Positions 10,402 through 57,462 are shown, numbered from the stretch's first letter. The stretch is 64,000 nt of DNA from Escherichia coli (GCF_044324875.1 NZ_CP172185.1); one strand, 5' to 3'. Numbers and translations: made by a program. The notes: generated from the sequence alone by a model not told the origin.

Positions 10402-10412
10402 TCATCATCTCC

Positions 10413-11852: not shown

Positions 11853-11868
11853 ATTCCGTCAGTGCTCC

Positions 11869-12816: not shown

Positions 12817-12826
12817 GGTGATTTCC

Positions 12827-15462: not shown

Positions 15463-15503
15463 GTCGGCTCCTTGAAAATGATATGAAACATTGCATTTCA
15501 TAT

Positions 15504-22819: not shown

Positions 22820-22892
22820 CTCCTTCAATTTTCTCCCATGGTCATTGTGAGTCAGCGGCGTAAAATTAATGACATCAGTTAAGGAGTTCGCC

Positions 22893-23604: not shown

Positions 23605-23682
23605 GGCCTGATAAGACGCGTGATGCGTCGTATCAGGCATCGTTCACCATTGCCGGATGCGGCGTTAACGCCTTATCCGGCC
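23605..23682. repeat. REP/BIME element (two REP palindromic units) between ypfH and ypfN
   Basis: gtaggcctgataagacgcg...gcgtcgtatcaggcat and tgccggatgcggcgttaacgccttatccggcc, the classic E. coli REP (PU) signatures. Confidence 0.75.
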
Positions 23683-34947: not shown

Positions 34948-34998
34948 GCACGGACCGTCCCCTCGCCCCTCTGGGAGAGGGTTAGGGTGAGGGGAACA
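34948..34998. repeat. GC-rich extragenic repeat, copy 1 (ypfG/tktB convergent gap)
   Basis: gcacggaccgtcccctcgcccctctgggagagggttagggtgaggggaaca; about 92% identical to the copy at 48326-48377. Confidence 0.7.
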
Positions 34999-40547: not shown

Positions 40548-40564
40548 TTCATTCTTAACTCTCA

Positions 40565-40597
40565 CGCTTACCCTGAATATTCAGGGTAAGCGGTTTT
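40565..40597 (+). terminator. Rho-independent terminator after maeB
   Basis: Perfect 12-bp stem cgcttaccctga/tcagggtaagcg, 4-nt loop, then GTTTTCC. Confidence 0.75.
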
Positions 40598-40839
40598 CCT
40601 GAAATATATTAGTAAAGCTTATTACTGAGTTTACGAATAATAAAAAAAGCAGTATATGAAATATCTCGATATTATTTTATTTATATTCATGCGTCGCATA
40701 TGAAAGTTTATTCATAACAGTAAATATCTCTCCATTCTTAGTGATCTACCTCACCTTTTAAACGCGCTTGCCGAATTTTGTTATTTACTCTGACGAAAAA
40801 TTGTCACGATACACGAAAGTTTTTCACAGGCGGCGACTC

Positions 40840-41175
40840 ATGGATAAAGAACGCATCATTCAGGAATTTGTGCCCGGCAAACAGGTCACGCTGGCGCATC
40901 TCATCGCGCATCCCGGCGAGGAACTGGCGAAGAAAATCGGCGTTCCTGATGCGGGCGCAATCGGCATTATGACGCTAACTCCTGGCGAAACGGCGATGAT
41001 CGCCGGTGATTTAGCATTGAAAGCCGCTGATGTGCATATCGGTTTTCTCGACCGCTTCAGCGGTGCATTGGTGATTTATGGCTCGGTGGGCGCAGTAGAA
41101 GAAGCATTATCACAAACCGTCAGCGGTTTAGGTCGCTTATTAAATTATACGCTTTGTGAAATGACCAAAAGTTAA
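40840..41175 (+). CDS. eutS: Ethanolamine utilisation microcompartment shell protein EutS (BMC domain)
   Basis: 111 aa from ATG 40840 ([23 protein letters not shown]...); track ORF is extended 24 codons into the promoter. Confidence 0.9.
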
Positions 41176-41187
41176 TACGAGGCATTC

Positions 41188-41667
41188 ATGAAACGAATTG
41201 CGTTTGTGGGTACCGTCGGGGCAGGAAAAACAACGTTATTTAATGCGTTGCAGGGGAATTATACCCTCGCCAGAAAAACACAGACCGTGGAATTTAATGA
41301 TAAGGGCGATATTGATACGCCGGGTGAATATTTTAGCCATCCCCGCTGGTATCACGCCTTAATTACCACGCTACAGGATGTGGACATGCTGATCTATGTC
41401 CATGGCGCAAATGACCCGGAAAGCCGATTGCCTGCCGGGTTGCTGGATATTGGCGTCAGCAAACGGCAAATCGCCATCATCAGTAAAACGGACATGCCGG
41501 ATGCTGACGTCGCCGCAACGCGAAAGTTATTGCTTGAGACGGGCTTCGAGGAGCCGATTTTCGAGCTAAACAGCCACGACCCGCAAAGCGTGCAGCAACT
41601 GGTGGATTATCTGGCATCTCTCACCAAACAGGAGGAAGCAGGTGAAAAAACTCATCACAGCGAATGA
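41188..41667 (+). CDS. eutP: Ethanolamine utilisation GTPase/acetate-kinase-like protein EutP
   Basis: 159 aa; Walker A GTVGAGKTT. Confidence 0.92.
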   Translation: MKRIAFVGTVGAGKTTLFNALQGNYTLARKTQTVEFNDKGDIDTPGEYFSHPRWYHALITTLQDVDMLIYVHGANDPESRLPAGLLDIGVSKRQIAIISKTDMPDADVAATRKLLLETGFEEPIFELNSHDPQSVQQLVDYLASLTKQEEAGEKTHHSE

Positions 41668-42343
41668 TATTCGTGAAGCACACGCGCGCGGCGAACAGGC
41701 AATGTCCGTGGTTCTGCGCGCCAGCATTATTACCCCGGAAGCCCGTGAAGTGGCAGATCTACTGGGTTTTACCATCACTGAATGTGATGAATCGACCCCG
41801 GTAACGGCGTCCGTTCCCGCCAGCGTGCCAGCCGATAAAACCGAAAGCCAGCGCATCCGCGAAACCATCATCGCCCAGCTACCGGAAGGCCAGTTTACCG
41901 AAAGCCTGGTCGCGCAGCTGATGGAAAAAGTGATGAAGGAAAAACAGTCACTGGAGCAGGGTGCAATGCAGCCGAGTTTCAAATCGGTTACCGGCAAAGG
42001 CGGCATCAAAGTTATTGATGGCAGCAGCGTCAAGTTTGGTCGTTTTGACGGCGCACAGCCACACTGCGTCGGATTAACGGATCTGGTCACCGGAGACGAC
42101 GGCAGCAGCATGGCCGCTGGTTTTATGCAGTGGGAGAACGCCTTCTTCCCGTGGACCCTGAACTATGACGAAATCGACATGGTACTGGAAGGGGAACTGC
42201 ACGTTCGCCACGAAGGCGAAACCATGATCGCCAAAGCAGGCGACGTGATGTTTATCCCGAAAGGCTCCAGCATCGAATTTGGTACGACATCCAGCGTGAA
42301 ATTCCTGTATGTCGCCTGGCCGGCTAACTGGCAATCCCTATGA
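41642..42343 (+). CDS. eutQ: Ethanolamine utilisation cupin-fold protein EutQ
   Basis: 233 aa; GTG start overlapping the eutP 3' end by 26 nt. Confidence 0.9.
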   Translation: MKKLITANDIREAHARGEQAMSVVLRASIITPEAREVADLLGFTITECDESTPVTASVPASVPADKTESQRIRETIIAQLPEGQFTESLVAQLMEKVMKEKQSLEQGAMQPSFKSVTGKGGIKVIDGSSVKFGRFDGAQPHCVGLTDLVTGDDGSSMAAGFMQWENAFFPWTLNYDEIDMVLEGELHVRHEGETMIAKAGDVMFIPKGSSIEFGTTSSVKFLYVAWPANWQSL

Positions 42344-43143
42344 AAGATTTCATCACCGAAGCATGGCTAAGAGCGAACCATACGCTCAGCGAAGGCGCAG
42401 AGATCCATCTCCCTGCGGACAGTCGCCTGACGCCCTCTGCCCGGGAGTTGCTGGAAAGCCGCCATCTGCGCATCAAGTTTATTGACGAGCAGGGCCGCCT
42501 GTTTGTTGACGATGAACAGCAGCAGCCGCAGCCCGTTCATGGGCTGACCAGTAGCGATGAACATCCGCAGGCGTGCTGCGAACTGTGCCGCCAGCCGGTA
42601 GCAAAAAAGCCGGATACGCTGACTCACCTGTCGGCGGAAAAAATGGTCGCCAAAAGCGATCCGCGCCTGGGTTTTCGCGCTGTTCTCGACAGCACCATTG
42701 CGCTGGCAGTGTGGCTGCAAATTGAACTGGCAGAACCGTGGCAGCCATGGCTGGCGGACATCCGCTCGCGTCTTGGCAACATTATGCGCGCCGATGCGCT
42801 CGGGGAACCGCTGGCCTACCAGGCGATTGTCGGGCTTTCTGACGAAGATCTGCATCGGCTTTCTCATCAGCCGCTGCGCTATCTCGACCACGATCATCTG
42901 GTGCCGGAAGCCAGCCACGGGCGCGATGCTGCGTTGCTCAATCTGCTACGCACCAAAGTGCGGGAAACCGAAACCGTAGCGGCGCAGGTGTTTATAACCC
43001 GCAGTTTTGAAGTATTACGCCCGGACATCTTGCAGGCGCTGAACCGCCTTTCGAGCACGGTCTACGTGATGATGATCCTGAGCGTAACGAAGCAGCCTCT
43101 AACGGTGAAGCAGATCCAACAACGACTGGGGGAAACGCAATGA
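42340..43143 (+). CDS. eutT: Ethanolamine utilisation cob(I)alamin adenosyltransferase EutT
   Basis: 267 aa; 4-nt overlap with eutQ stop. Confidence 0.92.
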
Positions 43144-44156
43144 TTATTGAACGTTGTCGTGAACTGGCGTTGCGAGCGCCCGCCAGAGTGGTTTTTCCGG
43201 ATGCGTTAGATCAACGTGTGCTGAAAGCCGCGCAATATTTACATCAACAAGGTCTGGCAACGCCCATTCTGGTCGCCAATCCGTTTGAACTTCGTCAGTT
43301 TGCGCTCAGTCACGGCGTGGCGATGGACGGGCTACAGGTGATAGATCCGCATGGCAACCTCGCAATGCGGGAAGAATTTGCTCTCCGCTGGCTGGCCCGT
43401 GCGGGCGAAAAAACGCCGCCGGATGCGTTGGAAAAACTCACCGATCCGCTGATGTTCGCTGCCGCAATGGTCAGCGCCGGGACAGCGGATGTCTGTATCG
43501 CGGGCAATCTCTCTTCCACGGCGAATGTGCTGCGTGCCGGATTACGCATTATTGGCTTACAGCCAGGCTGTAAAACGCTCTCCTCCATTTTCCTGATGCT
43601 GCCACAGTACAGCGGTCCGGCGTTGGGTTTTGCCGATTGCAGCGTGGTACCACAGCCGACGGCGGCACAACTGGCGGATATCGCGCTTGCCAGCGCCGAA
43701 ACCTGGCGCGCCATCACCGGAGAAGAGCCGCGCGTGGCGATGTTGTCGTTTTCCAGTAACGGCAGCGCCCGTCACCCCTGCGTTGCCAATGTCCAGCAGG
43801 CGACAGAAATCGTCCGTGAGCGCGCGCCGCAGTTGGTAGTCGATGGCGAGTTGCAGTTTGACGCCGCCTTCGTGCCGGAAGTGGCGGCGCAAAAAGCGCC
43901 TGCCAGCCCGCTACAAGGCAAGGCCAATGTGATGGTTTTTCCGTCGCTGGAAGCCGGAAATATTGGCTACAAAATCGCACAACGACTCGGCGGATATCGT
44001 GCCGTCGGGCCATTGATACAAGGACTTGCCGCGCCGATGCACGATCTCTCTCGTGGTTGTAGCGTGCAGGAAATTATCGAGCTGGCGCTGGTGGCAGCTG
44101 TGCCGCGTCAGACAGAAGTAAACCGTGAAAGCAGTTTACAAACACTGGTTGAATGA
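43140..44156 (+). CDS. eutD: Phosphotransacetylase EutD (EutI)
   Basis: 338 aa PTA-family protein; 4-nt overlap with eutT. Confidence 0.93.
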
Positions 44157-44194
44157 ACGGTCCCGTTCTGGACCCTGATAAAGAGGAAAGCACA

Positions 44195-44488
44195 ATGGAA
44201 GCATTAGGAATGATCGAAACCCGGGGCCTGGTTGCACTGATTGAGGCTTCTGACGCGATGGTGAAAGCTGCGCGCGTCAAGCTGGTTGGTGTTAAGCAGA
44301 TTGGCGGCGGCCTGTGTACTGCCATGGTTCGTGGTGATGTTGCAGCCTGTAAAGCCGCGACCGACGCAGGTGCTGCAGCGGCACAGCGTATCGGCGAGCT
44401 GGTATCTGTACACGTTATCCCGCGTCCGCACGGCGACCTGGAAGAAGTCTTCCCGATCGGCCTGAAAGGCGATAGCAGCAACCTGTAA
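44195..44488 (+). CDS. eutM: Major microcompartment shell protein EutM (BMC domain hexamer)
   Basis: 97 aa from ATG 44195 ([28 protein letters not shown]...); AAGAGGAAAG SD; track ORF is extended 14 codons. Confidence 0.93.
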
Positions 44489-44497
44489 TCACCCTGT

Positions 44498-44556
44498 GTG
44501 ACGTCGATTCGGGCGTCACGCTCTCTCCTTTTTCAGTTTACCTTCCGCGGAAGGTA
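44498..44556 (+). promoter_or_regulatory. Two stem-loops in the eutM-eutN spacer (candidate intra-operon attenuator or mRNA processing/stability element)
   Basis: Hairpin gtgacg/cgtcac followed by T-run, then 18-bp perfect palindrome taccttccgcggaaggta. Confidence 0.45.
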
Positions 44557-44594
44557 GGGGGAGCTTTTACCTGAAATACGCCACGGAGGCGGGT

Positions 44595-44882
44595 ATGAAA
44601 CTGGCAGTCGTCACTGGACAAATTGTTTGTACCGTACGCCATCACGGACTGGCGCATGACAAATTGCTGATGGTGGAAATGATTGATCCACAAGGTAATC
44701 CTGACGGGCAATGCGCCGTCGCCATCGACAATATTGGCGCGGGAACCGGGGAGTGGGTGTTGCTGGTGAGTGGCAGTTCTGCCCGCCAGGCGCATAAAAG
44801 CGAAACGTCACCGGTCGATCTGTGCGTGATTGGCATCGTCGATGAGGTGGTGACTGGCGGTCAGGTAATTTTCCACAAATAA
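44595..44882 (+). CDS. eutN: Microcompartment vertex protein EutN (EutN/CcmL pentamer family)
   Basis: 95 aa; GGAGG SD upstream. Confidence 0.92.
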   Translation: MKLAVVTGQIVCTVRHHGLAHDKLLMVEMIDPQGNPDGQCAVAIDNIGAGTGEWVLLVSGSSARQAHKSETSPVDLCVIGIVDEVVTGGQVIFHK

Positions 44883-44893
44883 GGCAGAACATC

Positions 44894-46297
44894 ATGAATC
44901 AACAGGATATTGAACAGGTGGTGAAAGCGGTACTGCTGAAAATGCAAAGCAGTGATACGCCGCCCGCCGCCGTTCATGAGATGGGCGTTTTCGCGTCCCT
45001 GGATGACGCCGTTGCGGCAGCCAAAATTGCCCAGCAAGGGTTAAAAAGCGTGGCAATGCGCCAGTTAGCCATTGCTGCCATTCGTGAGGCAGGCGAAAAA
45101 CACGCCAGAGATTTAGCGGAACTTGCCGTCAGTGAAACCGGCATGGGCCGCGTTGAAGATAAATTTGCCAAAAACGTCGCTCAGGCGCGCGGCACGCCAG
45201 GCGTTGAGTGTCTCTCTCCGCAGGTGCTGACCGGCGACAACGGCCTGACCTTAATTGAAAACGCGCCCTGGGGCGTAGTGGCTTCGGTGACGCCTTCCAC
45301 TAACCCGGCGGCAACCGTAATTAACAATGCCATCAGCCTGATTGCGGCGGGCAACAGCGTCATTTTTGCCCCGCATCCGGCGGCGAAAAAAGTCTCCCAG
45401 CGGGCGATCACGCTGCTCAACCAGGCGATTGTTGCCGCAGGCGGGCCGGAAAACTTACTGGTTACTGTGGCAAATCCGGATATCGAAACCGCGCAACGCT
45501 TGTTCAAGTTTCCGGGTATCGGCCTGCTGGTGGTGACCGGCGGCGAAGCGGTAGTAGAAGCGGCACGTAAACACACCAATAAACGTCTGATTGCCGCAGG
45601 CGCTGGCAACCCGCCGGTAGTGGTGGATGAAACCGCTGACCTCGCCCGTGCTGCTCAGTCCATCGTCAAAGGCGCGTCTTTCGATAACAACATCATTTGT
45701 GCCGACGAAAAGGTACTGATTGTTGTGGATAGCGTAGCCGATGAACTGATGCGTCTGATGGAAGGCCAGCACGCGGTGAAACTGACCGCAGAGCAGGCGC
45801 AGCAGCTGCAACCGGTGTTGCTGAAAAATATCGACGAGCGCGGAAAAGGCACCGTCAGCCGTGACTGGGTTGGTCGCGATGCGGCGAAAATCGCGGCGGC
45901 AATCGGCCTTAAAGTTCCGGAACAAACGCGACTGCTGTTTGTAGAAACCACCGCAGAACATCCGTTTGCTGTGACTGAACTGATGATGCCGGTGCTGCCC
46001 GTCGTGCGCGTCGCCAACGTGGCGGATGCCATTGCGCTGGCGGTGAAACTGGAAGGCGGTTGCCATCACACGGCGGCAATGCACTCGCGCAACATCGAGA
46101 ACATGAACCAGATGGCGAACGCCATTGATACCAGCATTTTCGTTAAGAACGGACCGTGCATTGCCGGGCTGGGGCTGGGCGGGGAAGGCTGGACCACCAT
46201 GACCATCACCACGCCAACCGGTGAAGGGGTAACCAGCGCGCGTACGTTTGTCCGTCTGCGTCGCTGTGTATTAGTTGATGCGTTTCGCATTGTTTAA
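44894..46297 (+). CDS. eutE: CoA-acylating acetaldehyde dehydrogenase EutE
   Basis: 467 aa aldehyde dehydrogenase-family protein. Confidence 0.93.
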   Translation: MNQQDIEQVVKAVLLKMQSSDTPPAAVHEMGVFASLDDAVAAAKIAQQGLKSVAMRQLAIAAIREAGEKHARDLAELAVSETGMGRVEDKFAKNVAQARGTPGVECLSPQVLTGDNGLTLIENAPWGVVASVTPSTNPAATVINNAISLIAAGNSVIFAPHPAAKKVSQRAITLLNQAIVAAGGPENLLVTVANPDIETAQRLFKFPGIGLLVVTGGEAVVEAARKHTNKRLIAAGAGNPPVVVDETADLARAAQSIVKGASFDNNIICADEKVLIVVDSVADELMRLMEGQHAVKLTAEQAQQLQPVLLKNIDERGKGTVSRDWVGRDAAKIAAAIGLKVPEQTRLLFVETTAEHPFAVTELMMPVLPVVRVANVADAIALAVKLEGGCHHTAAMHSRNIENMNQMANAIDTSIFVKNGPCIAGLGLGGEGWTTMTITTPTGEGVTSARTFVRLRRCVLVDAFRIV

Positions 46298-46307
46298 GGA
46301 GTAACCG

Positions 46308-47144
46308 ATGGCGCACGACGAACAATGGCTCATCCCGCGTCTGCAAACGGCGGCAACGCTGTGTAACCAGACGCCTGCCGCAACGGAATCTCCGCTGTGG
46401 CTGGGGGTGGATCTGGGCACCTGCGATGTGGTGTCGATGGTTGTCGACCGCGACGGTCAGCCGGTGGCGGTATGCCTCGACTGGGCTGATGTGGTCCGCG
46501 ACGGCATCGTCTGGGATTTCTTCGGTGCGGTCACCATTGTTCGTCGCCATCTTGACACCCTCGAGCAGCAATTCGGTCGCCGTTTTAGCCATGCGGCGAC
46601 CTCTTTTCCTCCAGGTACGGACCCGCGTATTTCCATCAACGTGCTGGAGTCTGCCGGGCTGGAAGTGAGCCATGTGCTGGATGAGCCAACCGCAGTCGCG
46701 GATCTGCTGCAACTGGACAACGCCGGTGTAGTGGATATCGGCGGCGGCACCACCGGCATTGCCATCGTGAAAAAGGGCAAGGTGACTTACTCGGCAGATG
46801 AAGCCACCGGCGGACATCACATCTCTCTGACTCTCGCCGGAAATCGTCGTATTTCGCTGGAGGAGGCAGAGCAGTACAAGCGCGGTCACGGTGAAGAGAT
46901 TTGGCCCGCGGTGAAACCGGTGTACGAAAAAATGGCGGACATTGTCGCCCGGCATATTGAAGGGCAGGGCATTACTGATTTATGGCTGGCGGGCGGCTCT
47001 TGTATGCAACCGGGCGTGGCGGAACTGTTTCGCAAACAATTCCCGGCGTTACAGGTGCATTTACCGCAGCACAGTTTGTTTATGACCCCGCTGGCGATCG
47101 CCAGTAGCGGGCGAGAGAAAGCGGAGGGGATCTATGCAAAATGA
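46308..47144 (+). CDS. eutJ: Ethanolamine utilisation chaperone-like protein EutJ (actin/Hsp70 fold)
   Basis: 278 aa; VDIGGGTTGIA phosphate-binding loop. Confidence 0.92.
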   Translation: MAHDEQWLIPRLQTAATLCNQTPAATESPLWLGVDLGTCDVVSMVVDRDGQPVAVCLDWADVVRDGIVWDFFGAVTIVRRHLDTLEQQFGRRFSHAATSFPPGTDPRISINVLESAGLEVSHVLDEPTAVADLLQLDNAGVVDIGGGTTGIAIVKKGKVTYSADEATGGHHISLTLAGNRRISLEEAEQYKRGHGEEIWPAVKPVYEKMADIVARHIEGQGITDLWLAGGSCMQPGVAELFRKQFPALQVHLPQHSLFMTPLAIASSGREKAEGIYAK

Positions 47145-48321
47145 ATTGCAGACCGCGCTCTTTCAGGCGTTCGATACCCTGAATCTGCAACGGGTAAAAA
47201 CATTTAGCGTTCCACCGGTGACGCTTTGCGGTCCGGGCGCGGTGAGCAGTTGTGGGCAGCAAGCGCAAACGCGTGGGCTGAAACATCTGTTCGTGATGGC
47301 AGACAGCTTTTTGCATCAGGCAGGGATGACCGCCGGGCTGACGCGTAGCCTGGCCGTTAAAGGTATCGCCATGACGCTCTGGCCATGTCCGGTGGGCGAA
47401 CCATGCATCACCGACGTGTGTGCAGCCGTGGCGCAGTTGCGTGAATCAGGCTGTGACGGGGTGATTGCGTTTGGCGGCGGCTCGGTGCTGGATGCAGCAA
47501 AAGCCGTGGCGTTGCTGGTGACGAACCCGGATAGCACGCTGGCAGAGATGTCAGAAACCAGCGTTCTGCAACCGCGCCTGCCGTTGATTGCCATTCCAAC
47601 GACCGCCGGAACCGGCTCTGAAACCACCAACGTAACGGTGATTATCGACGCGGTGAGCGGGCGCAAGCAGGTGTTAGCCCATGCCTCGCTGATGCCGGAT
47701 GTGGCGATTCTCGACGCTGCGCTGACCGAAGGCGTGCCGTCGCATGTCACGGCGATGACCGGTATCGACGCGTTAACCCATGCTATTGAAGCGTACAGCG
47801 CGCTGAACGCCACACCGTTTACCGACAGCCTGGCGATTGGTGCCATTGCGATGATTGGCAAATCGCTGCCGAAAGCGGTGGGCTACGGTCACGACCTTGC
47901 CGCCCGCGAGAGCATGTTGCTGGCTTCATGTATGGCGGGAATGGCGTTTTCCAGTGCGGGGCTTGGGTTGTGCCACGCGATGGCGCATCAGCCAGGGGCG
48001 GCGCTGCATATTCCGCACGGTCTGGCGAACGCCATGCTACTGCCAACGGTGATGGAGTTTAACCGGATGGTCTGTCGTGAACGCTTTAGTCAGATTGGTC
48101 GGGCGCTGCGAACTAAAAAATCCGACGATCGTGACGCTATTAACGCGGTAAGTGAGCTGATTGCGGAAGTCGGGATTGGTAAACGACTGGGCGATATTGG
48201 TGCGACATCTGCGCATTACGGCGCATGGGCGCAGGCCGCGCTGGAAGATATTTGTCTGCGCAGCAACCCGCGTACCGCCAGCCTGGAGCAGATTATTGGT
48301 CTGTATGCTGCGGCGCAATAA
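47134..48321 (+). CDS. eutG: Iron-containing alcohol dehydrogenase EutG
   Basis: 395 aa; GGGSVLD motif; overlaps eutJ 3' end by 11 nt. Confidence 0.93.
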   Translation: MQNELQTALFQAFDTLNLQRVKTFSVPPVTLCGPGAVSSCGQQAQTRGLKHLFVMADSFLHQAGMTAGLTRSLAVKGIAMTLWPCPVGEPCITDVCAAVAQLRESGCDGVIAFGGGSVLDAAKAVALLVTNPDSTLAEMSETSVLQPRLPLIAIPTTAGTGSETTNVTVIIDAVSGRKQVLAHASLMPDVAILDAALTEGVPSHVTAMTGIDALTHAIEAYSALNATPFTDSLAIGAIAMIGKSLPKAVGYGHDLAARESMLLASCMAGMAFSSAGLGLCHAMAHQPGAALHIPHGLANAMLLPTVMEFNRMVCRERFSQIGRALRTKKSDDRDAINAVSELIAEVGIGKRLGDIGATSAHYGAWAQAALEDICLRSNPRTASLEQIIGLYAAAQ

Positions 48322-48325
48322 AAGT

Positions 48326-48440
48326 GTACGGACAGTCCCCTCGCCCCTTTGGGGAGAGGGTTAGGGTGAGGGGAACAGAGTCGCGCCGGTGCAAATAATT
48401 ACCCTCACCCCGACCCCTCGGCTTCCAGAGTGAGGGAAAA
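48326..48440. repeat. GC-rich extragenic repeat, copy 2 plus partial inverted copy (eutG-eutH gap)
   Basis: gtacggacagtcccctcgcccctttggggagagggttagggtgaggggaaca, then ccctcaccc 28 nt downstream as an inverted partner of gggtgaggg. Confidence 0.7.
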
Positions 48441-48490
48441 ACCCACTTTCAGCATTGGCAATAAATAACAACTAACAGGGAGTAAAGGCG

Positions 48491-49717
48491 ATGGGAATTA
48501 ACGAAATCATCATGTACATCATGATGTTCTTTATGCTGATAGCTGCCGTAGACAGGATCCTGTCGCAGTTCGGCGGTTCTGCTCGTTTCCTCGGTAAGTT
48601 CGGTAAAAGTATCGAAGGATCAGGCGGTCAGTTCGAAGAAGGCTTTATGGCAATGGGCGCACTGGGCCTGGCGATGGTCGGTATGACCGCGCTGGCACCG
48701 GTACTGGCTCACGTACTCGGGCCGGTGATTATCCCGGTTTACGAAATGCTCGGCGCAAACCCATCGATGTTCGCCGGAACACTGCTGGCGTGCGATATGG
48801 GCGGCTTCTTCCTCGCCAAAGAGCTGGCGGGCGGCGACGTAGCAGCGTGGCTATACTCTGGGTTAATTCTCGGGTCGATGATGGGGCCAACGATTGTGTT
48901 TTCCATTCCGGTGGCGCTCGGCATTATCGAACCTTCTGACCGTCGTTATCTGGCGCTCGGCGTGCTGGCGGGCATTGTGACCATTCCGATTGGCTGTATT
49001 GCCGGTGGTCTGGTGGCTATGTATTCCGGTGTGCAGATCAACGGTCAGCCAGTGGAATTCACCTTTGCCCTGATCCTGATGAACATGATCCCGGTACTTA
49101 TCGTCGCGGTACTGGTGGCGCTGGGGCTGAAATTCATCCCGGAAAAAATGATCAACGGCTTCCAGATCTTCGCCAAATTCCTCGTTGCATTGATCACCCT
49201 CGGTCTTGCCGCTGCGGTAGTGAAATTCCTGCTCGGTTGGGAACTGATCCCCGGTCTGGATCCGATCTTCATGGCTCCAGGCGATAAACCCGGTGAAGTG
49301 ATGCGCGCCATTGAAGTTATCGGTTCTATCTCCTGCGTGCTGTTAGGGGCGTACCCGATGGTACTGCTGCTGACCCGCTGGTTTGAAAAACCGCTGATGA
49401 GCGTCGGTAAGGTGCTGAATATGAACAACATCGCGGCAGCTGGCATGGTGGCAACGCTTGCCAACAACATCCCAATGTTTGGCATGATGAAGCAGATGGA
49501 TACCCGCGGCAAAGTCATCAACTGCGCCTTCGCCGTTTCCGCTGCTTTCGCCCTGGGTGACCACTTAGGCTTCGCCGCTGCCAACATGAACGCCATGATT
49601 TTCCCGATGATTGTCGGCAAGTTGATCGGCGGCGTAACGGCGATTGGCGTGGCGATGATGCTGGTGCCAAAAGAAGACGCGACCGCGGCCAAAACCGAAG
49701 CGGAGGCACAATCGTGA
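48491..49717 (+). CDS. eutH: Ethanolamine permease EutH
   Basis: 408 aa polytopic membrane protein. Confidence 0.93.
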   Translation: MGINEIIMYIMMFFMLIAAVDRILSQFGGSARFLGKFGKSIEGSGGQFEEGFMAMGALGLAMVGMTALAPVLAHVLGPVIIPVYEMLGANPSMFAGTLLACDMGGFFLAKELAGGDVAAWLYSGLILGSMMGPTIVFSIPVALGIIEPSDRRYLALGVLAGIVTIPIGCIAGGLVAMYSGVQINGQPVEFTFALILMNMIPVLIVAVLVALGLKFIPEKMINGFQIFAKFLVALITLGLAAAVVKFLLGWELIPGLDPIFMAPGDKPGEVMRAIEVIGSISCVLLGAYPMVLLLTRWFEKPLMSVGKVLNMNNIAAAGMVATLANNIPMFGMMKQMDTRGKVINCAFAVSAAFALGDHLGFAAANMNAMIFPMIVGKLIGGVTAIGVAMMLVPKEDATAAKTEAEAQS

Positions 49718-51117
49718 ACACTCGCCAGCTACTGAGCGTCGGTATCGATATCGGCACCACCACCACCCAGGTGATCTTCTCCCACCTGGAGCTGGTTAAC
49801 CGTGCGGCGGTGTCGCAGGTGCCGCGCTACGAATTCATCAAACGCGAAATTAGCTGGCAAAGCCCGGTGTTCTTTACCCCTGTCGATAAACAGGGTGGTT
49901 TAAAAGAAGCGGAACTGAAATCGCTGATTTTAGAGCAATATCAGGCTGCGGGCATTGCGCCGGAAAGCGTTGATTCTGGTGCCATCATCATCACCGGTGA
50001 AAGCGCGAAAACCCGCAACGCTCGCCCGGCGGTGATGACGCTCTCCCAGTCGCTGGGCGATTTTGTCGTCGCCAGCGCCGGGCCGCATCTCGAATCCGTG
50101 ATCGCCGGTCACGGTGCCGGGGCGCAAACCCTTTCTGAACAACGGCTGTGTCGGGTACTGAATATCGACATCGGCGGTGGCACCGCGAACTACGCCCTGT
50201 TCGATGCCGGAAAAATCAGCGGCACTGCCTGCCTCAACGTCGGTGGTCGCCTGCTGGAAACCGACAGCCAGGGGCGCGTGGTTTACGCTCATAAACCGGG
50301 GCAGATGATTGTGGATGAGTGCTTCGGTGCAGGCAGTGACGCCCGTTCGCTGACCGGCGCGCAGCTGGTGCAGGTTACCCGCCGGATGGCAGAGCTGATT
50401 GTCGAAGTGATTGACGGAACGCTCTCGCCGCTCGCGCAGGCATTAATGCAAACCGGTTTGCTGCCCGCAGGTGTTACGCCCGAAATCATTACGCTTTCTG
50501 GCGGCGTGGGCGAATGTTATCGCCACCAGCCCGCCGCCCCGTTCTGTTTTGCCGATATCGGCCCGCTGCTGGCAACGGCGCTGTATGACCATCCGCGCCT
50601 GCGTGAGATGAACGTGCAGTTTCCGGCGCAAACCGTGCGCGCCACGGTGATTGGCGCGGGTGCACATACCCTTTCGCTCTCTGGCAGCACAATCTGGCTG
50701 GAGGGCGTCCAACTGCCGCTGCGCAATTTGCCGGTGGCGATCCCGATTGATGAAACGGATCTGGTGAGTGCCTGGCAACAGGCGCTGATTCAGCTGGATC
50801 TTGATCCCAAAACTGACGCGTACGTGCTGGCGCTTCCCGCCTCGCTGCCTGTGCGTTACGCCGCGGTACTGACGGTCATCAACGCGCTGGTCGATTTCGT
50901 CGCGCGTTTTCCGAATCCGCATCCCCTGTTGGTGGTGGCCGGGCAGGACTTTGGTAAAGCTCTGGGCATGTTGTTGCGCCCACAGCTACAACAACTCCCG
51001 TTGGCAGTCATTGACGAAGTGATTGTCCGCGCGGGGGACTATATCGACATTGGTACGCCTCTTTTTGGCGGATCGGTTGTGCCGGTGACGGTGAAATCAC
51101 TCGCATTTCCTTCCTGA
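49714..51117 (+). CDS. eutA: Ethanolamine ammonia-lyase reactivating factor EutA
   Basis: 467 aa; 4-nt overlap with eutH stop. Confidence 0.93.
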   Translation: MNTRQLLSVGIDIGTTTTQVIFSHLELVNRAAVSQVPRYEFIKREISWQSPVFFTPVDKQGGLKEAELKSLILEQYQAAGIAPESVDSGAIIITGESAKTRNARPAVMTLSQSLGDFVVASAGPHLESVIAGHGAGAQTLSEQRLCRVLNIDIGGGTANYALFDAGKISGTACLNVGGRLLETDSQGRVVYAHKPGQMIVDECFGAGSDARSLTGAQLVQVTRRMAELIVEVIDGTLSPLAQALMQTGLLPAGVTPEIITLSGGVGECYRHQPAAPFCFADIGPLLATALYDHPRLREMNVQFPAQTVRATVIGAGAHTLSLSGSTIWLEGVQLPLRNLPVAIPIDETDLVSAWQQALIQLDLDPKTDAYVLALPASLPVRYAAVLTVINALVDFVARFPNPHPLLVVAGQDFGKALGMLLRPQLQQLPLAVIDEVIVRAGDYIDIGTPLFGGSVVPVTVKSLAFPS

Positions 51118-51128
51118 GGGAACGACTT

Positions 51129-52496
51129 ATGAAACTAAAGACCACATTGTTCGGCAATGTATATCAGTTTAAGGATGTAAAAGAGGTGCTGGCTAAAGCC
51201 AACGAACTGCGTTCGGGGGATGTGCTGGCGGGCGTCGCAGCGGCAAGCTCACAGGAGCGCGTGGCGGCAAAGCAGGTGTTGTCGGAAATGACCGTAGCGG
51301 ACATCCGCAATAATCCGGTGATTGCTTATGAAGATGACTGCGTGACGCGGCTGATTCAGGACGACGTTAACGAAACGGCCTACAACCAGATTAAAAACTG
51401 GAGCATCAGCGAACTGCGTGAATACGTCCTGAGCGACGAAACCAGCGTTGACGACATTGCCTTTACCCGCAAAGGGTTGACCTCGGAAGTGGTCGCGGCG
51501 GTAGCGAAGATTTGCTCCAACGCGGACCTGATCTACGGCGCGAAGAAAATGCCGGTGATCAAAAAGGCCAATACCACCATCGGTATTCCGGGCACCTTCA
51601 GCGCCCGCTTGCAGCCAAACGACACCCGTGACGACGTGCAAAGTATCGCCGCGCAAATCTACGAAGGGCTTTCTTTCGGGGTGGGCGATGCGGTGATCGG
51701 CGTTAACCCGGTGACTGACGACGTGGAAAACTTAAGCCGCGTGTTGGACACCATCTATGGCGTGATCGACAAATACAACATTCCGACCCAGGGCTGCGTG
51801 CTGGCGCACGTCACCACCCAGATTGAAGCAATTCGTCGCGGCGCGCCTGGCGGACTGATTTTCCAGAGTATCTGCGGCAGCGAAAAAGGGCTGAAAGAGT
51901 TTGGCGTGGAACTGGCGATGCTCGACGAAGCGCGCGCAGTGGGCGCGGAGTTCAACCGTATCGCCGGGGAAAACTGCCTCTACTTCGAAACCGGACAAGG
52001 CTCTGCGCTATCCGCTGGCGCTAACTTCGGCGCAGACCAGGTGACGATGGAAGCGCGTAACTACGGGCTGGCGCGTCATTACGATCCGTTTATCGTCAAC
52101 ACCGTGGTCGGCTTTATTGGGCCGGAGTATCTCTACAACGACCGCCAGATTATCCGTGCGGGCTTAGAAGATCACTTTATGGGCAAGCTGAGCGGCATCT
52201 CTATGGGCTGTGACTGCTGCTACACCAACCACGCTGACGCTGACGCTGACCAGAACCTCAACGAAAACCTCATGATCCTGCTCGCCACCGCAGGCTGCAA
52301 CTACATCATGGGGATGCCGCTGGGCGATGACATCATGCTCAACTATCAGACCACCGCATTCCACGACACTGCCACTGTGCGTCAGTTACTCAACCTGCGC
52401 CCGTCACCGGAGTTTGAACGCTGGCTGGAAAGCATGGGCATTATGGCAAACGGTCGCCTGACCAAACGGGCGGGCGATCCGTCACTGTTCTTCTGA
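51129..52496 (+). CDS. eutB: Ethanolamine ammonia-lyase large (heavy) subunit
   Basis: 455 aa from ATG 51129 (MKLKTTLFGNVYQFKDVKEV...); contains in-frame (GCTGAC)3 repeat encoding ADADAD. Confidence 0.95.
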   Translation: MKLKTTLFGNVYQFKDVKEVLAKANELRSGDVLAGVAAASSQERVAAKQVLSEMTVADIRNNPVIAYEDDCVTRLIQDDVNETAYNQIKNWSISELREYVLSDETSVDDIAFTRKGLTSEVVAAVAKICSNADLIYGAKKMPVIKKANTTIGIPGTFSARLQPNDTRDDVQSIAAQIYEGLSFGVGDAVIGVNPVTDDVENLSRVLDTIYGVIDKYNIPTQGCVLAHVTTQIEAIRRGAPGGLIFQSICGSEKGLKEFGVELAMLDEARAVGAEFNRIAGENCLYFETGQGSALSAGANFGADQVTMEARNYGLARHYDPFIVNTVVGFIGPEYLYNDRQIIRAGLEDHFMGKLSGISMGCDCCYTNHADADADQNLNENLMILLATAGCNYIMGMPLGDDIMLNYQTTAFHDTATVRQLLNLRPSPEFERWLESMGIMANGRLTKRAGDPSLFF

Positions 52497-52516
52497 TGAC
52501 GCGGAGATAACACATC

Positions 52517-53404
52517 ATGGATCAAAAACAGATTGAAGAAATTGTACGCAGCGTGATGGCGTCAATGGGACAAGCGGCCCCCGCGCCGTCAGAAGCAAAG
52601 TGCGCCACCACCACCTGTGCGGCACCGGTGACCTCGGAAAGCTGCGCGCTGGACTTAGGCTCTGCGGAAGCAAAAGTGTGGATTGGTGTTGAAAACCCGC
52701 ATCGCGCAGACGTATTAACAGAACTGCGTCGCAGCACCGTGGCCCGCGTTTGTACCGGTCGTGCCGGTCCGCGTCCGCGTACCCAGGCGTTGCTGCGTTT
52801 CCTGGCCGATCACTCTCGTTCGAAAGATACCGTACTGAAAGAAGTGCCGGAAGAGTGGGTGAAAGCGCAGGGCTTGCTGGAAGTCCGCTCTGAAATTAGC
52901 GACAAAAATCTCTACCTGACTCGTCCGGATATGGGCCGCCGCCTGTGTGCAGAAGCTGTTGAAGCCCTGAAAGCACAGTGTGTTGCTAATCCGGACGTGC
53001 AGGTCGTTATTTCTGATGGCCTGTCAACTGATGCGATCACCGTGAACTACGAAGAGATCCTGCCGCCGCTGATGGCGGGCCTGAAACAGGCCGGGCTGAA
53101 AGTCGGTACGCCATTCTTTGTTCGTTATGGTCGCGTGAAGATTGAAGATCAGATCGGTGAGATCCTCGGCGCGAAAGTAGTGATCCTGCTGGTGGGGGAA
53201 CGCCCGGGATTAGGGCAGTCAGAAAGCCTCTCCTGCTACGCCGTTTACTCGCCGCGTATGGCGACCACCGTTGAGGCCGATCGCACCTGTATTTCTAACA
53301 TTCACCAGGGCGGCACGCCGCCGGTTGAAGCCGCAGCCGTCATTGTGGATTTGGCGAAACGTATGCTGGAGCAGAAAGCATCCGGCATCAACATGACCCG
53401 ATAA
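52517..53404 (+). CDS. eutC: Ethanolamine ammonia-lyase small (light) subunit
   Basis: 295 aa. Confidence 0.95.
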
Positions 53405-53413
53405 GGAGGCATC

Positions 53414-54073
53414 ATGCCAGCTTTAGATTTGATTCGACCGTCGGTCACCGCCATGCGGGTGATTGCCTCCGTTAACGCCGAATTTGCGCGTGAACTGAAA
53501 TTGCCGCCGCATATTCGTAGCCTCGGGCTGATTTCTGCTGATTCCGATGACGTCACCTACATTGCGGCTGACGAAGCGACCAAGCAGGCGATGGTCGAAG
53601 TGGTGTATGGCCGCTCGCTGTATGCGGGCGCTGCACACGGACCGTCACCGACTGCCGGTGAAGTGCTGATTATGCTCGGTGGGCCAAACCCGGCGGAAGT
53701 GCGTGCTGGTCTGGATGCGATGGTTGCGCATATTGAAAATGGCGCGGCTTTCCAGTGGGCTAATGATGCGCAAGATACGGCATTCCTGGCACATGTAGTT
53801 TCGCGTACCGGTTCTTATCTCTCATCAACCGCCGGGATCACGCTTGGCGATCCGATGGCGTATCTGGTGGCACCGCCGCTGGAAGCGACCTACGGCATTG
53901 ATGCAGCGTTGAAATCTGCCGACGTACAGCTGGTGACCTATGTCCCGCCACCGTCTGAAACCAACTACTCGGCAGCATTTTTAACCGGTAGCCAGGCCGC
54001 GTGTAAAGCAGCCTGTAACGCCTTTACCGATGCAGTGCTGGAAATCGCGCGTAATCCAATCCAGCGTGCGTAA
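53414..54073 (+). CDS. eutL: Microcompartment shell protein EutL (tandem BMC domain trimer)
   Basis: 219 aa. Confidence 0.93.
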
Positions 54074-54085
54074 CGGAGGTTGCCG

Positions 54086-54586
54086 ATGATCAATGCACTG
54101 GGATTGCTGGAAGTGGACGGCATGGTCGCCGCGATAGATGCAGCTGATGCCATGCTCAAAGCAGCTAACGTTCGTCTGCTCAGTCACGAAGTGCTTGACC
54201 CTGGTCGCCTAACGCTGGTGGTGGAAGGCGATCTGGCGGCGTGTCGTGCGGCGCTGGACGCAGGTTGTGCTGCCGCGATGCGTACCGGGCGTGTCATCAG
54301 CCGTAAGGAGATCGGTCGGCCAGACGATGACACCCAGTGGCTGGTTACTGGCTTTAACCGCCAGCCGAAGCAACCCGTAAAGGAACCCGACGCGCCAGTT
54401 ATCGTCGCGGAATCTGCTGACGAGTTGTTGGCGCTGTTAACATCAGTACGTCAGGGAATGACGGCAGGAGAAGTGGCAGCCCACTTTGGCTGGCCGCTGG
54501 AAAAAGCCAGAAATGCGCTCGAACAGCTCTTTTCTGCCGGGACGTTACGTAAACGCAGTAGTCGTTACCGTCTCAAGCCCCATTAA
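54086..54586 (+). CDS. eutK: Microcompartment shell protein EutK (BMC domain plus C-terminal nucleic-acid-binding-like domain)
   Basis: 166 aa from ATG 54086 (MINALGLLEVDGMVAAIDAADAMLKAANV...). Confidence 0.9.
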   Translation: MINALGLLEVDGMVAAIDAADAMLKAANVRLLSHEVLDPGRLTLVVEGDLAACRAALDAGCAAAMRTGRVISRKEIGRPDDDTQWLVTGFNRQPKQPVKEPDAPVIVAESADELLALLTSVRQGMTAGEVAAHFGWPLEKARNALEQLFSAGTLRKRSSRYRLKPH

Positions 54587-54598
54587 CCTGTCGGAGGT

Positions 54599-54622
54599 GC
54601 CGGGTGTCCTACAACACCCGGC
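54599..54622 (+). promoter_or_regulatory. Stem-loop in the eutK-eutR spacer
   Basis: Perfect 9-bp stem gccgggtgt/acacccggc with 6-nt loop, ending 10 nt before eutR ATG; flanked by direct cattaac repeats. Confidence 0.45.
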
Positions 54623-54631
54623 ATTAACATC

Positions 54632-55684
54632 ATGAAAAAGACCCGTACAGCCAATTTGCACCATCTTTATCATGAACCCTTACCCGAAAACCTGAAGCTC
54701 ACGCCGAAGGTCGAAGTGGATAATGTTCATCAACGACAGACAACGGACGTCTATGAACATGCTTTGACAATTACCGCCTGGCAGCAGATTTACGATCAGC
54801 TGCATCCGGGCAAGTTTCATGGTGAATTTACGGAAATTCTACTCGATGATATTCAGGTTTTTCGTGAATACACTGGTCTGGCGCTGCGTCAGTCGTGCCT
54901 GGTCTGGCCGAACTCGTTCTGGTTTGGCATTCCGGCGACGCGCGGTGAGCTGGGATTTATCGGTTCGCAATGTCTGGGAAGCGCAGAAATTGCGACGCGC
55001 CCGGGTGGAACTGAGTTTGAATTAAGTACGCCGGACGATTACACGATCCTTGGCGTAGTGCTTTCTGAAGATGTCATCACTCGTCAGGCTAACTTTTTGC
55101 ATAATCCGGATCGGGTATTACATATGCTGCGTAGCCAGTCGGCGCTGGAAGTGAAAGAGCAGCATAAAGCCGCGCTGTGGGGCTTTGTCCAACAGGCGCT
55201 GGCGACGTTTTGCGAGAACCCGGAAAATCTCCATCAGCCTGCAGTGCGAAAAGTGCTGGGGGATAATTTGCTCATGGCGATGGGGGCGATGCTGGAAGAA
55301 GCGCAGCCGATGATGACGGCGGAAAGCATCAGTCATCAGAGTTACCGTCGATTGCTTTCCCGCGCCCGTGAATATGTGCTGGAAAACATGTCCGAACCGG
55401 TGACGGTGCTGGACTTGTGTAATCAACTGCATGTCAGCCGCCGCACGCTACAAAACGCGTTTCACGCCATTTTGGGCATTGGTCCGAACGCGTGGCTGAA
55501 ACGTATTCGCCTGAACGCCGTGCGCCGCGAACTCATAAGTCCGTGGTCACAAAGCACAACGGTAAAAGACGCCGCCATGCAGTGGGGATTCTGGCATCTT
55601 GGGCAATTTGCCACGGATTATCAGCAACTGTTTGCCGAGAAGCCGTCACTGACGCTGCATCAGCGGATGCGAGAGTGGGGGTGA
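54632..55684 (+). CDS. eutR: AraC-family transcriptional activator of the eut operon
   Basis: 350 aa; C-terminal AraC-type HTH. Confidence 0.93.
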
Positions 55685-55689
55685 GGGAG

Positions 55690-56592
<903 letters not shown>

Positions 56593-57462
56593 TTACCGCT
56601 TTCTCGAGTGTGCTTTCTGGTTGTCAAACCAGTGGAAATAACTGATCACGCCTTCGGCAATCGCTGTGGCGATTTTCTGGCGAAACGCCGCAGTGCCTAA
56701 CAGCCGCTCTTCTTCTGGGTTGGTGATAAACGAGGTTTCCACCAGCACCGAAGGAACCGACGGCGATTTCAACACCACAAACGCGGCTTGTTCGGTGTTG
56801 CGGCTGTGCAGTTTATGCACCGGCTTAATCTTTTTCAGAATATGCGAGCCGAGCGTCAGGCTGTTTTTAATAGTATCGGTTTGCACCAGATCAAACAGCA
56901 CTTGCTGCAATAGGTGATCCTTGTCAGTCGCCTTTTTACCGGCAACTTCATCGGCGCGGTTTTCGCGTTCAGACAGGTATTTCGCCATTGCGCTACTTGC
57001 CCCACGGTTAGAGAGGGCAAATACCGAAGCACCGGCAGCTTTCGGGTTGGTAAAGCCGTCGGCATGAATTGACATAAACAGATCTGCGCCATGTTTATGG
57101 GCGATTTCAACGCGATCGTATAGTGGGATAAACGTATCGCCAGAACGCGTTAAACGCGCATCAATGCCATGATTACGCAAAATGGAACGGACGTTTTTAG
57201 CAATCGCCAGCACCACATGTTTTTCTTTCGAACCGTTGCGCCCGATCGCTCCGGTATCAATCCCGCCGTGGCCTGGATCGAGAACAACGACACGTTTGCC
57301 GCCAGATTTTTTGGCTTTCGGCTTGCTGTGTCCGTTGCTGGTTTTTAAAGGTTCGTCTTTGGCGATGGCTTGCGACATTCCTGACAACGTCAGGGCAGCC
57401 AAACCGGCTTTCAGCACCTGGCGGCGCGAAGTGAGTGTTTTTAGTGGTTTAAAAGTGCTCAT
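56593..57462 (-). CDS. amiA: N-acetylmuramoyl-L-alanine amidase AmiA
   Basis: 289 aa; twin-arginine signal (TSRRQVLKAGLAAL); amidase_3 domain. Confidence 0.95.
   Translation of the reverse strand: MSTFKPLKTLTSRRQVLKAGLAALTLSGMSQAIAKDEPLKTSNGHSKPKAKKSGGKRVVVLDPGHGGIDTGAIGRNGSKEKHVVLAIAKNVRSILRNHGIDARLTRSGDTFIPLYDRVEIAHKHGADLFMSIHADGFTNPKAAGASVFALSNRGASSAMAKYLSERENRADEVAGKKATDKDHLLQQVLFDLVQTDTIKNSLTLGSHILKKIKPVHKLHSRNTEQAAFVVLKSPSVPSVLVETSFITNPEEERLLGTAAFRQKIATAIAEGVISYFHWFDNQKAHSRKR

Follow-up and report, generated by a model that had tools for sequence, protein, structure and literature searches.

Most eut functions have been established in Salmonella enterica serovar Typhimurium LT2 (PMC5821096, PMC12487888), whose Eut proteins are individually more than 73% identical to those of E. 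coli W3110 (PMC11334477). Judging by published descriptions, LT2 matches the locus considered here in its 17-gene organisation, in its regulation by EutR through P1 and P2, and in its microcompartment mechanism (PMC5821096, PMC12487888). Salmonella differs in that it synthesises B12 anaerobically and possesses pdu in addition to eut; in E. coli K-12, eut is the only microcompartment locus (PMC11334477). The eut loci of Firmicutes (Enterococcus, Listeria) likewise depend on ethanolamine and AdoCbl and encode the signature enzymes EutBC and EutA along with shell proteins, but are regulated by the two-component antiterminator EutVW and by EutX, an sRNA that contains a riboswitch (PMC5821096). Within E. 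coli, the site between eutA and eutB is a prophage hot spot, and eut is conserved in 47 of 47 UPEC strains (PMC6652756). In K-12 the prophage at this site blocks eutB induction and compartment formation (PMC7617246), and prophage removal from BW25113 restored the use of ethanolamine as a nitrogen source (PMC11334477); an uninterrupted operon is shown in the literature to be required for ethanolamine use (PMC11334477, PMC7617246).

The window analysed here, a 64,000-nucleotide stretch of E. coli DNA (GCF_044324875.1, NZ_CP172185.1), contains 17 consecutive plus-strand open reading frames at 40840–55684, in the order eutSPQTDMNEJGHABCLKR, with maeB on one side and hemF/amiA on the other, reproducing the maeB–eut–hemF–amiA synteny of annotated E. 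coli (Table 1). We regard it as almost certain, nothing having been found to contradict it, that the locus is the canonical EUT1-type chromosomal operon for ethanolamine utilisation in Escherichia coli, arranged without a prophage as is the norm for the species. Each frame has a length that is a multiple of three, a single terminal stop and a Shine–Dalgarno-like sequence ahead of it. Fifteen of the 17 products (EutS, P, Q, T, M, N, J, G, H, A, B, C, L, K and R) match named Eut NCBIfam models far above the cut-off, while EutD and EutE match phosphotransacetylase and aldehyde dehydrogenase subfamily models; all 17 cover their profiles completely or almost completely, with no frameshift or internal stop. 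These frames and profile matches confirm what a sequence-only reading of the window had proposed, namely that all 17 genes are present on the plus strand in full order. Its statement that they are full length and free of frameshifts holds for the reading frames but fails for eutB, which measures 1368 nt (455 aa) as compared with the canonical 1362 nt (453 aa). Nor does the operon start at 40599, as had been claimed: no gene begins there, the position falling in the 292-nt maeB–eutS spacer just past the maeB terminator hairpin.

Per-gene sequence comparison was made against strain A10, while K-12 lengths were taken from annotation tables. Sixteen of the 17 genes have the same length as their RefSeq-annotated orthologues in A10 and in the K-12 derivative EV36, eutB being the exception; for eight genes this agreement in length extends to MG1655. 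All 17 genes are shared with K-12 MG1655/BW25113, with lengths equal save for eutB. Natural E. coli, a eut+ K-12 W3110 laboratory stock, Nissle 1917 and EDL933 likewise have the same genes, order, orientation, flanks and 11-nt eutA–eutB spacer, at 97–98.7% identity and with the same gene lengths except for eutB. Among the 5,426 complete genomes of E. coli examined, 5,175 cover at least 80% of the locus in one place. The best-matching genomes are 98.0–98.7% identical, and none of the complete RefSeq genomes exceeds 98.7% over the locus. The operon is ordinary and already known, its sole unusual detail being a rare two-residue insertion in EutB. No integrase or phage gene is present in the eut locus. 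Seven antisense frames of at least 159 aa (159–249 aa) occur in the region and, none having a Pfam match, were rejected as hidden minus-strand genes. The eutQ frame overlaps eutP by 26 nt, and the mechanical ORF of eutM begins earlier than the annotated start, at 44153.

Table 1. Features of the eut locus and its upstream boundary (window coordinates)
Feature	Position	Strand	Remarks
maeB terminator-like hairpin	40565..40592	+	12-bp stem then GTTTTCC; upstream boundary of eut regulatory region
eut regulatory region, AT-rich	40593..40839	+	P1 expected here; P1/P2 organisation from PMC5821096
eutS, shell protein, 111 aa	40840..41175	+	NF012012, profile 1-111/111; identical to A10 protein
eutP, EutP/PduV-family GTPase-like protein (NCBIfam name: acetate kinase), 159 aa	41188..41667	+	NF012011, 1-159/159
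eutQ, cupin protein (acetate kinase; shell-cargo bridge), 233 aa, GTG start	41642..42343	+	NF012001, 1-233/233; role PMC12487888
eutT, cob(I)alamin adenosyltransferase, 267 aa	42340..43143	+	NF011595, 1-267/267
eutD, phosphotransacetylase, 338 aa	43140..44156	+	NF007233, 408 bits; 0 nt differences vs A10
eutM, major hexameric shell protein, 97 aa	44195..44488	+	NF012018, 1-97/97; RefSeq start as in A10
eutM-eutN spacer, 106 nt, two GC-rich hairpins	44489..44594	+	predicted -42.5 kcal/mol, z = -2.5
eutN, pentameric vertex protein, 95 aa	44595..44882	+	NF011992, 1-95/95
eutE, CoA-acylating acetaldehyde dehydrogenase, 467 aa	44894..46297	+	NF011927, 738 bits; N-terminal encapsulation peptide MNQQDIEQVVKAVLLKMQS
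eutJ, DnaK-like chaperone-type protein, 278 aa	46308..47144	+	NF011660, near-whole profile
eutG, iron-type alcohol dehydrogenase, 395 aa	47134..48321	+	NF011998, 1-395/395, 890 bits
eutG-eutH spacer, 169 nt, GC-rich imperfect palindromes	48322..48490	+	length strain-variable
eutH, ethanolamine permease/facilitator, 408 aa	48491..49717	+	NF011665, 1-408/408
eutA, ethanolamine ammonia-lyase reactivase, 467 aa, GTG start	49714..51117	+	NF007991, 1-467/467
CTTCCTGA single copy, includes eutA TGA stop; unoccupied insertion site	51110..51117	+	duplicated around CPZ-55 in K-12
eutB, ethanolamine ammonia-lyase large (catalytic) subunit, 455 aa	51129..52496	+	NF011649, 659.9 bits (cut-off 554)
(GCTGAC)x3 tract in eutB, codons 369-374 (ADADAD)	52233..52250	+	two copies in other E. 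coli
eutC, ethanolamine ammonia-lyase small subunit, 295 aa	52517..53404	+	NF003971, 338.9 bits (cut-off 230); N-terminal encapsulation peptide (19 aa)
eutL, trimeric tandem-domain shell protein, 219 aa	53414..54073	+	NF011934, all but first and last profile position
eutK, shell protein with C-terminal extension, 166 aa	54086..54586	+	NF012010, 1-166/166
eutR, AraC-family activator, 350 aa, operon's last gene	54632..55684	+	NF007522, 1-350/350, 786.6 bits

The shell set is complete, comprising EutM, EutK and EutS (hexamer-type), EutL (trimer-type) and EutN (pentamer-type), all well above the NCBIfam cut-off (equivalog models for EutM, EutN, EutL and EutK, a subfamily model for EutS). Equivalog matches over the whole profile (nearly so for EutJ) were also obtained for EutA, EutT, EutH, EutJ, EutP and EutQ, and both subunits of ethanolamine ammonia-lyase, EutB and EutC, are present. 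The N-terminal encapsulation peptides of EutC and EutE, whose role has been described (PMC12487888, PMC11334477), are intact, both proteins being identical to their A10 orthologues. The functions previously assigned to the locus (shell EutS/M/N/L/K, EutBC, EutA, EutE, EutD, EutG, EutT, EutH and EutR) agree with these family matches and with published work (PMC5821096, PMC12487888, PMC11334477). By analogy with the orthologous systems established in Salmonella and E. coli, a polyhedral shell would be built by EutS, M, L, K and N, and EutQ, a bridge between shell and cargo (PMC12487888), would link EutC and EutE to it through their encapsulation peptides. Ethanolamine, let in by EutH, would be split inside the shell into ammonia and acetaldehyde by EutBC, with EutA reactivating the lyase and EutT adenosylating cobalamin. 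The acetaldehyde would be converted to acetyl-CoA by EutE and to ethanol by EutG, the latter recycling NAD+/NADH, and EutD would yield acetyl-phosphate and recycle CoA.

The control logic of eut, with its two promoters P1 and P2 and the activator EutR, has been described (PMC5821096). On this model, a weak P2 ahead of eutR would supply EutR at a low level; together with ethanolamine and adenosylcobalamin, EutR would then activate P1 upstream of eutS, and the P1 transcript, spanning the whole operon including eutR, would close a positive-feedback loop. As the eutA–eutB junction is uninterrupted, transcription from P1 should be able to reach eutBCLKR, which it cannot do in K-12 strains carrying the 6.8-kb CPZ-55 in the opposite orientation. 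The final 120 nt upstream of eutS are identical in the window, K-12 and A10. A consensus promoter scan of 40400–56000 gave no sigma-70-like site upstream of eutS or eutR and did not locate P1 or P2; it returned a single site, inside eutN, against 8.0 expected from shuffles. In contrast with the Firmicutes loci, the operon ends with an AraC-type EutR and EutVW is absent. Rfam searches, run on the whole window at the gathering threshold and on the locus at E ≤ 1, detected neither an AdoCbl riboswitch nor any other family in the locus, in keeping with EutR-type regulation. An asponA match (E = 0.35) was at chance level and was rejected.

At the eutA–eutB junction, the eutA stop occupies 51115–51117 and the eutB ATG follows at 51129, leaving the 11-nt spacer that the sequence-only reading had given. 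In MG1655, the cryptic prophage CPZ-55 (6,790 bp, 2558691–2565480; intZ, yffL-S) is annotated between eutB and eutA, inserted on the opposite strand at the eutA stop codon. It is flanked by an 8-bp direct repeat of CTTCCTGA, as seen in EV36, whereas the window has one copy only, indicating that the site is unoccupied. A check for phage or integrase sequence at this position found none. The MG1655 annotation and the empty site together uphold the earlier contrast between an interrupted MG1655 and an uninterrupted window. The uninterrupted junction is nevertheless no distinction, since it is the majority state of the species: 4,964 of the 5,426 complete genomes (91.5%) have it. The remaining ~8.5% are interrupted by CPZ-55, IS elements or islands, the K-12-type CPZ-55 junction occurring in 232 genomes.

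The insertion in EutB results from an in-frame 6-nt repeat expansion: the protein has 455 rather than 453 residues because GCTGAC is present three times instead of twice, so that the segment reads YTNH-ADADAD-QN in place of the canonical YTNH-ADAD-QN. Despite this length, its sole difference, the product is by sequence a clear EutB orthologue. The expansion, which probably arose by lineage-specific slippage of the GCTGAC repeat, has occurred at least twice, in the window lineage and, on a different eutB background, in TOE3. The additional Ala-Asp lies in the β7–α7 loop and begins seven residues after Asp362. This residue of E. coli EutB, near-invariant in EutB alignments, is one that we take, from the crystal-structure work of Shibata et al. 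2010, to be substrate-binding/catalytic. The role of another residue, Glu287, is supported by PMC8473560. EutB is 99% identical to PDB 3ABO, and an AF2 model of the 455-aa protein, built from a final alignment with homologues down to 31% identity, had a pLDDT of 95.2 and superposed on 3ABO chain A with a TM of 0.99 and an rmsd of 0.7 Å. A model from a shallow alignment (26 sequences, ≥79% identity; pLDDT 58.9) was discarded.

Both departures from the K-12 reference, the empty junction and the longer EutB, might be read differently. The junction could be secondary, an ancestral prophage having been lost by precise excision, as might be imagined at a recognised insertion hot spot (PMC6652756) that is interrupted in ~8.5% of complete genomes. 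We consider this very unlikely: there is one clean CTTCCTGA copy and no scar, the 11-nt spacer is the same as in other uninterrupted strains, and the empty site is the large majority state across divergent E. coli. Precise excision would be traceless, so that the two histories are indistinguishable from sequence, and their functional outcome is the same. As for the third GCTGAC copy, length errors are common in short tandem repeats and just 1 of 5,382 complete genomes shares the variant, which might point to a sequencing or assembly artefact. Such an origin is, however, practically excluded, since the exact 455-aa protein recurs on 186 public contigs from NCBI, ENA and Logan (the index lists 223 blocks of the collection), with the matching EutA recorded under adjacent accession numbers, and two independent assemblies match the window at 100% identity across 4,368 bp. 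This recurrence establishes the 455-aa EutB as a real allele of an E. coli lineage that has been sequenced many times.

A more serious alternative is that the 17 open frames hide a crippled operon, with the inserted Ala-Asp disturbing the active site or the cobalamin/EutC interface so that ethanolamine use is absent or poor. The loop concerned comes after the strand bearing the conserved Asp362 and is of nearly invariant length, the segment keeping one length in Listeria EutB, in all 24 orthologues compared (≥79% identity) and in 35 of 37 homologues reaching down to 31%. The AF2 model has its lowest confidence here as well (pLDDT 77–79), and the insertion is as rare among complete genomes as noted above. 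Given this constancy of length, the proximity to Asp362 and the low model confidence, lyase activity of the 455-aa EutB may be impaired. On the other hand, the allele is found on many contigs and has at least two origins, the rest of the operon is without decay, and the predicted fold is unchanged. Moreover, the added residues merely lengthen an existing Ala-Asp repeat, and the loop can change length, since one distant homologue carries eight extra residues at this point and another lacks three. On balance, a crippled operon appears unlikely, and we infer that the insertion is tolerated. It is similarly doubtful, though worth bearing in mind, that the recurrent slippage is functionally meaningful, inactivating or retuning the lyase (activity, suicide-inactivation rate or cobamide handling); if it were, a clonal E. 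coli lineage would have fixed, within an apparently intact operon, a hidden allele with lost or altered function.

In the gut or urinary tract, a strain with an intact eut operon would be expected to draw nitrogen, and in some cases carbon, from ethanolamine supplied by the host, given external B12. In both E. coli and Salmonella, ethanolamine use has been associated with colonisation and competition. An intact operon is no guarantee of growth on ethanolamine as sole carbon source, since W3110 failed to grow in this way despite its intact operon (PMC11334477) and growth was seen in only 3 of 35 commensals (cited in PMC7617246). Beyond correct annotation, the importance of the present locus is small: intact eut is the species default and the interrupted K-12 reference the exception, making K-12 a poor yardstick for what is unusual at this locus. 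The EutB Ala-Asp also illustrates that checks for open reading frames alone can overlook small in-frame changes, possibly affecting a key enzyme. A further, minor difference concerns the eutG–eutH spacer, which is shorter in the window (169 nt) than elsewhere (216–515 nt), with 216 nt in K-12 and 515 nt in A10.

Seventeen consecutive open reading frames on the plus strand make up the eut locus, the ethanolamine-utilization microcompartment operon eutSPQTDMNEJGHABCLKR. With RefSeq-style starts, every one has a length that is a multiple of three, a single terminal stop and a Shine-Dalgarno-like sequence upstream. Fifteen products (EutS, P, Q, T, M, N, J, G, H, A, B, C, L, K and R) matched a named Eut model of NCBIfam well over the curated cut-off, EutD and EutE matched phosphotransacetylase and aldehyde dehydrogenase subfamily models, respectively, and profile coverage was end to end, or almost so, for all 17. 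Open reading frames and profiles thus agree with the sequence-only reading that 17 eut genes with open frames lie on the plus strand. Its description of all of them as full length holds for the other genes but not for eutB, which measures 1368 nt (455 aa) as compared with 1362 nt (453 aa) in strain A10 (annotated in RefSeq, uninterrupted), the K-12 derivative EV36, MG1655 and the crystallized E. coli enzyme. Nor does a gene start at position 40599, where the operon had been said to begin: the eutS ATG is at 40840, and 40599 sits directly 3′ of a terminator-like hairpin after maeB, within the AT-rich 292-nt maeB–eutS spacer. The synteny maeB–eut–hemF–amiA matches that of annotated E. coli chromosomes. 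Within the operon, neighbouring genes overlap or are separated by short spacers, apart from three larger gaps (eutD–eutM, eutM–eutN and eutG–eutH). Seven antisense ORFs of 159–249 aa in the eut region were without any Pfam match, and an Rfam search placed no family in the eut locus.

Positions of the eut locus, its flanks and other features in the window; identities are the best found among complete RefSeq E. coli genomes
Feature	Position (nt)	Strand	Remark
Run of ORFs	2703-15501	-	
ORF	22869-23591		
naRNA4 match	23605-23682	-	RF02564
ORF	23918-25045		
First compared segment	25900-40547		best identity ~99.0%
GGGAGAGGGTTAGGGTGAGGGG, second exact copy	34973-34994		between ypfG and tktB
maeB	38268-40547	+	flank of eut locus
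Terminator-like hairpin	40565-40592		after maeB
Second compared segment	40548-55690		best identity ~98.7%
eut operon	40840-55684	+	17 ORFs
eutP/eutQ overlap			26 nt
eutQ/eutT, eutT/eutD, eutH/eutA overlaps			4 nt each
eutD-eutM gap			38 nt
eutM-eutN gap	44489-44594		106 nt
eutJ/eutG overlap			11 nt
eutG-eutH gap	48322-48490		169 nt
CTTCCTGA, single copy	51110-51117		
eutA stop	51115-51117	+	
eutB ATG	51129	+	first nucleotide
GCTGAC x3	52233-52250		in eutB
Third compared segment	55690-64000		best identity ~98.2%
hemF	55690-56592	-	flank of eut locus
amiA	56593-57462	-	flank of eut locus
pbp4B (yfeW)	60226-61527	-	

The stop and start coordinates confirm the 11-nt gap that had been noted between eutA and eutB. 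In K-12 the cryptic prophage CPZ-55 had been said to lie here, and the annotation of MG1655 bears this out: CPZ-55 occupies 2558691-2565480 (6,790 bp) between eutB and eutA and carries intZ and yffL-S in the opposite orientation to eut, an arrangement found again in a K-12 derivative. Both junctions were read in the derivative, and the 8-bp direct repeat CTTCCTGA stands on both sides of the prophage; the eutA-side copy takes in the TGA stop codon, and the eutB-side copy ends 12 nt before the ATG. The window has a single copy of CTTCCTGA followed by the normal spacer GGGAACGACTT, and the eutA–eutB site is clean and unoccupied.

The reading of an uninterrupted arrangement is accordingly correct, but it fails as a distinction. 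A 2-kb probe over the eutA–eutB junction was contiguous in 4,964 of 5,426 complete E. coli genomes (91.5%), in a search that merges pieces up to ~1.5 kb apart and may thus count tiny insertions as contiguous. A left CPZ-55 junction of the K-12 type was found in 232 genomes (4.3%). In strain CH4784, eutA is followed by IS1 and then murI-gadC-like genes, and in strain 102651 eutA is truncated, and IS903B and IS3 elements with unrelated genes come after it. These two strains illustrate that the hot spot at the end of eutA is a general one, open to insertion and rearrangement beyond CPZ-55, and in the literature the site is marked as a 'prophage insertion hot spot' (PMC6652756). The same study found eut kept in 47/47 sequenced UPEC strains. 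In BW25113, which carries CPZ-55, eutS was induced, eutB was not and compartments were absent (PMC7617246), while scarless removal of the prophage restored the use of ethanolamine as nitrogen source (PMC11334477). Taken together, junction frequency and literature make the uninterrupted state the species default, and the eut locus a textbook, already characterized system in its commonest configuration, correctly read but ordinary.

The sole thread of interest at the locus is a possible effect on ethanolamine ammonia-lyase of an Ala-Asp insertion in EutB. The hexanucleotide GCTGAC is present three times in the window and twice in A10 and K-12, giving YTNH-ADADAD-QN as against YTNH-ADAD-QN in the protein. 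The length of this segment was constant in 24/24 orthologues down to 79% identity, in Listeria EutB (PDB 2QEZ) and in 35/37 homologues down to 31% identity, the exceptions being one distant homologue in which 8 residues are inserted at this point and another with a 3-residue deletion. In the AF2 model of the 455-aa protein (pLDDT 95.2), strand β7 (359–363) is followed by a loop (364–374) and helix α7 (375–387), a placement from which the insertion is predicted to extend a β–α loop on the catalytic face of the TIM barrel. Asp362, on strand β7, is almost invariant in the alignments and is reportedly a substrate-binding residue (Shibata et al. 2010). The two 10-residue blocks over 361–380 are the lowest-confidence part of the model (77 and 79), which superimposes on chain A of 3ABO, the crystallized E. 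coli EutB, with a TM score of 0.99 and an rmsd of 0.7 Å.

A sequencing artefact as the source of the insertion is ruled out, since the exact 455-aa EutB is recorded on 186 contigs (223 blocks of the collection in the index) and the window shares 100% identity across 4,368 bp with two assemblies, GCA_048682725.2 and GCA_044152715.1; the matching EutA is also on record. Among 5,382 complete genomes searched with a 101-nt probe, the three-copy form occurred in one, strain TOE3 from Myanmar. Its eutB background differs (F216 vs Y216, plus synonymous differences), which means that the GCTGAC expansion arose more than once. Persistence in many isolates, recurrence, the undecayed state of the rest of the operon and the unchanged predicted fold together indicate that the insertion is most likely tolerated, and a real functional defect of the enzyme appears improbable.

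The 120 nt before eutS are identical to those of K-12 and A10, so that the eutS-proximal regulatory DNA is conserved; a consensus promoter scan did not place P1 or P2. The AraC-type activator EutR, encoded by the last gene, is produced at low level from the weak constitutive promoter P2 and, with ethanolamine and adenosylcobalamin, activates P1 upstream of eutS, whose transcript covers the whole operon including eutR and creates a positive-feedback loop (PMC5821096). Shell formation is driven by EutM together with EutL, EutK, EutS and EutN, the vertex protein, and EutQ ties the shell to the cargo core via encapsulation peptides at the N-termini of EutC and EutE (PMC12487888). In the window, both of these peptides are intact. 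We infer the mechanism as a whole from orthology: EutR from P2 would activate P1 in the presence of both compounds, with feedback transcription of the operon, EutM, L, K, S and N would form the shell, and EutQ would couple the EutC/EutE cargo to it. Going by family names and by the pathway figure legends of PMC6652756 and PMC7617246, EutH would let the substrate in, EutBC inside the shell would yield ammonia and acetaldehyde, EutA and EutT would maintain the cofactor, and EutE, EutG and EutD would act on the aldehyde, with recycling of both NAD(H) and CoA. In its predicted fold (−42.5 kcal/mol, z = −2.5 vs shuffles), the eutM–eutN spacer forms two strong hairpins rich in GC, and a T-rich run comes after the first; the structure might act as a partial attenuator or stabilize the mRNA, setting highly expressed eutM apart from the downstream genes.

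Compared with A10, the products other than EutB are equal in length and differ at 0–9 residues. Nucleotide differences are uneven, from none in eutD, eutM and eutN to 36 in eutR and 70 in eutG, the usual mosaic from recombination. Identity to complete RefSeq E. coli genomes is ≤98.7% over the eut locus and peaks at 99.0% and 98.2% in the flanks, and the best-matching strains change from segment to segment: ST2747 in the first, GN25 and A10 (wild birds) in the second, and LR778147 (sediment) and ETEC1738 (pig) in the third. From these ceilings and differing best strains it follows that the window stems from a lineage without a representative in the complete RefSeq set, of which draft assemblies do exist; the source lineage is, by the same comparisons, under-represented among complete genomes and mosaic relative to them. 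The pbp4B gene is intact in the window (NF002968, 1-432/432), whereas in A10, in other respects the closest strain, all that is left of it between yfeX and murP is a pseudogene remnant of 87 nt.

The eutG–eutH spacer, which differs in length from strain to strain (169 nt in the window, 216 nt in K-12, 515 nt in A10), contains GC-rich imperfect palindromes, including GGGAGAGGGTTAGGGTGAGGGG. With the 15-kb eut query, the median number of places hit per genome was 7, in keeping with a dispersed repeat family. Elsewhere in the window, Rfam placed naRNA4, a nucleoid-associated ncRNA of the REP-element class, between two ORFs (85.7 bits), and the minus-strand run of ORFs would fit, by size and position only, the hyf (hydrogenase-4) operon with hyfR and focB, which is expected in this part of the chromosome.
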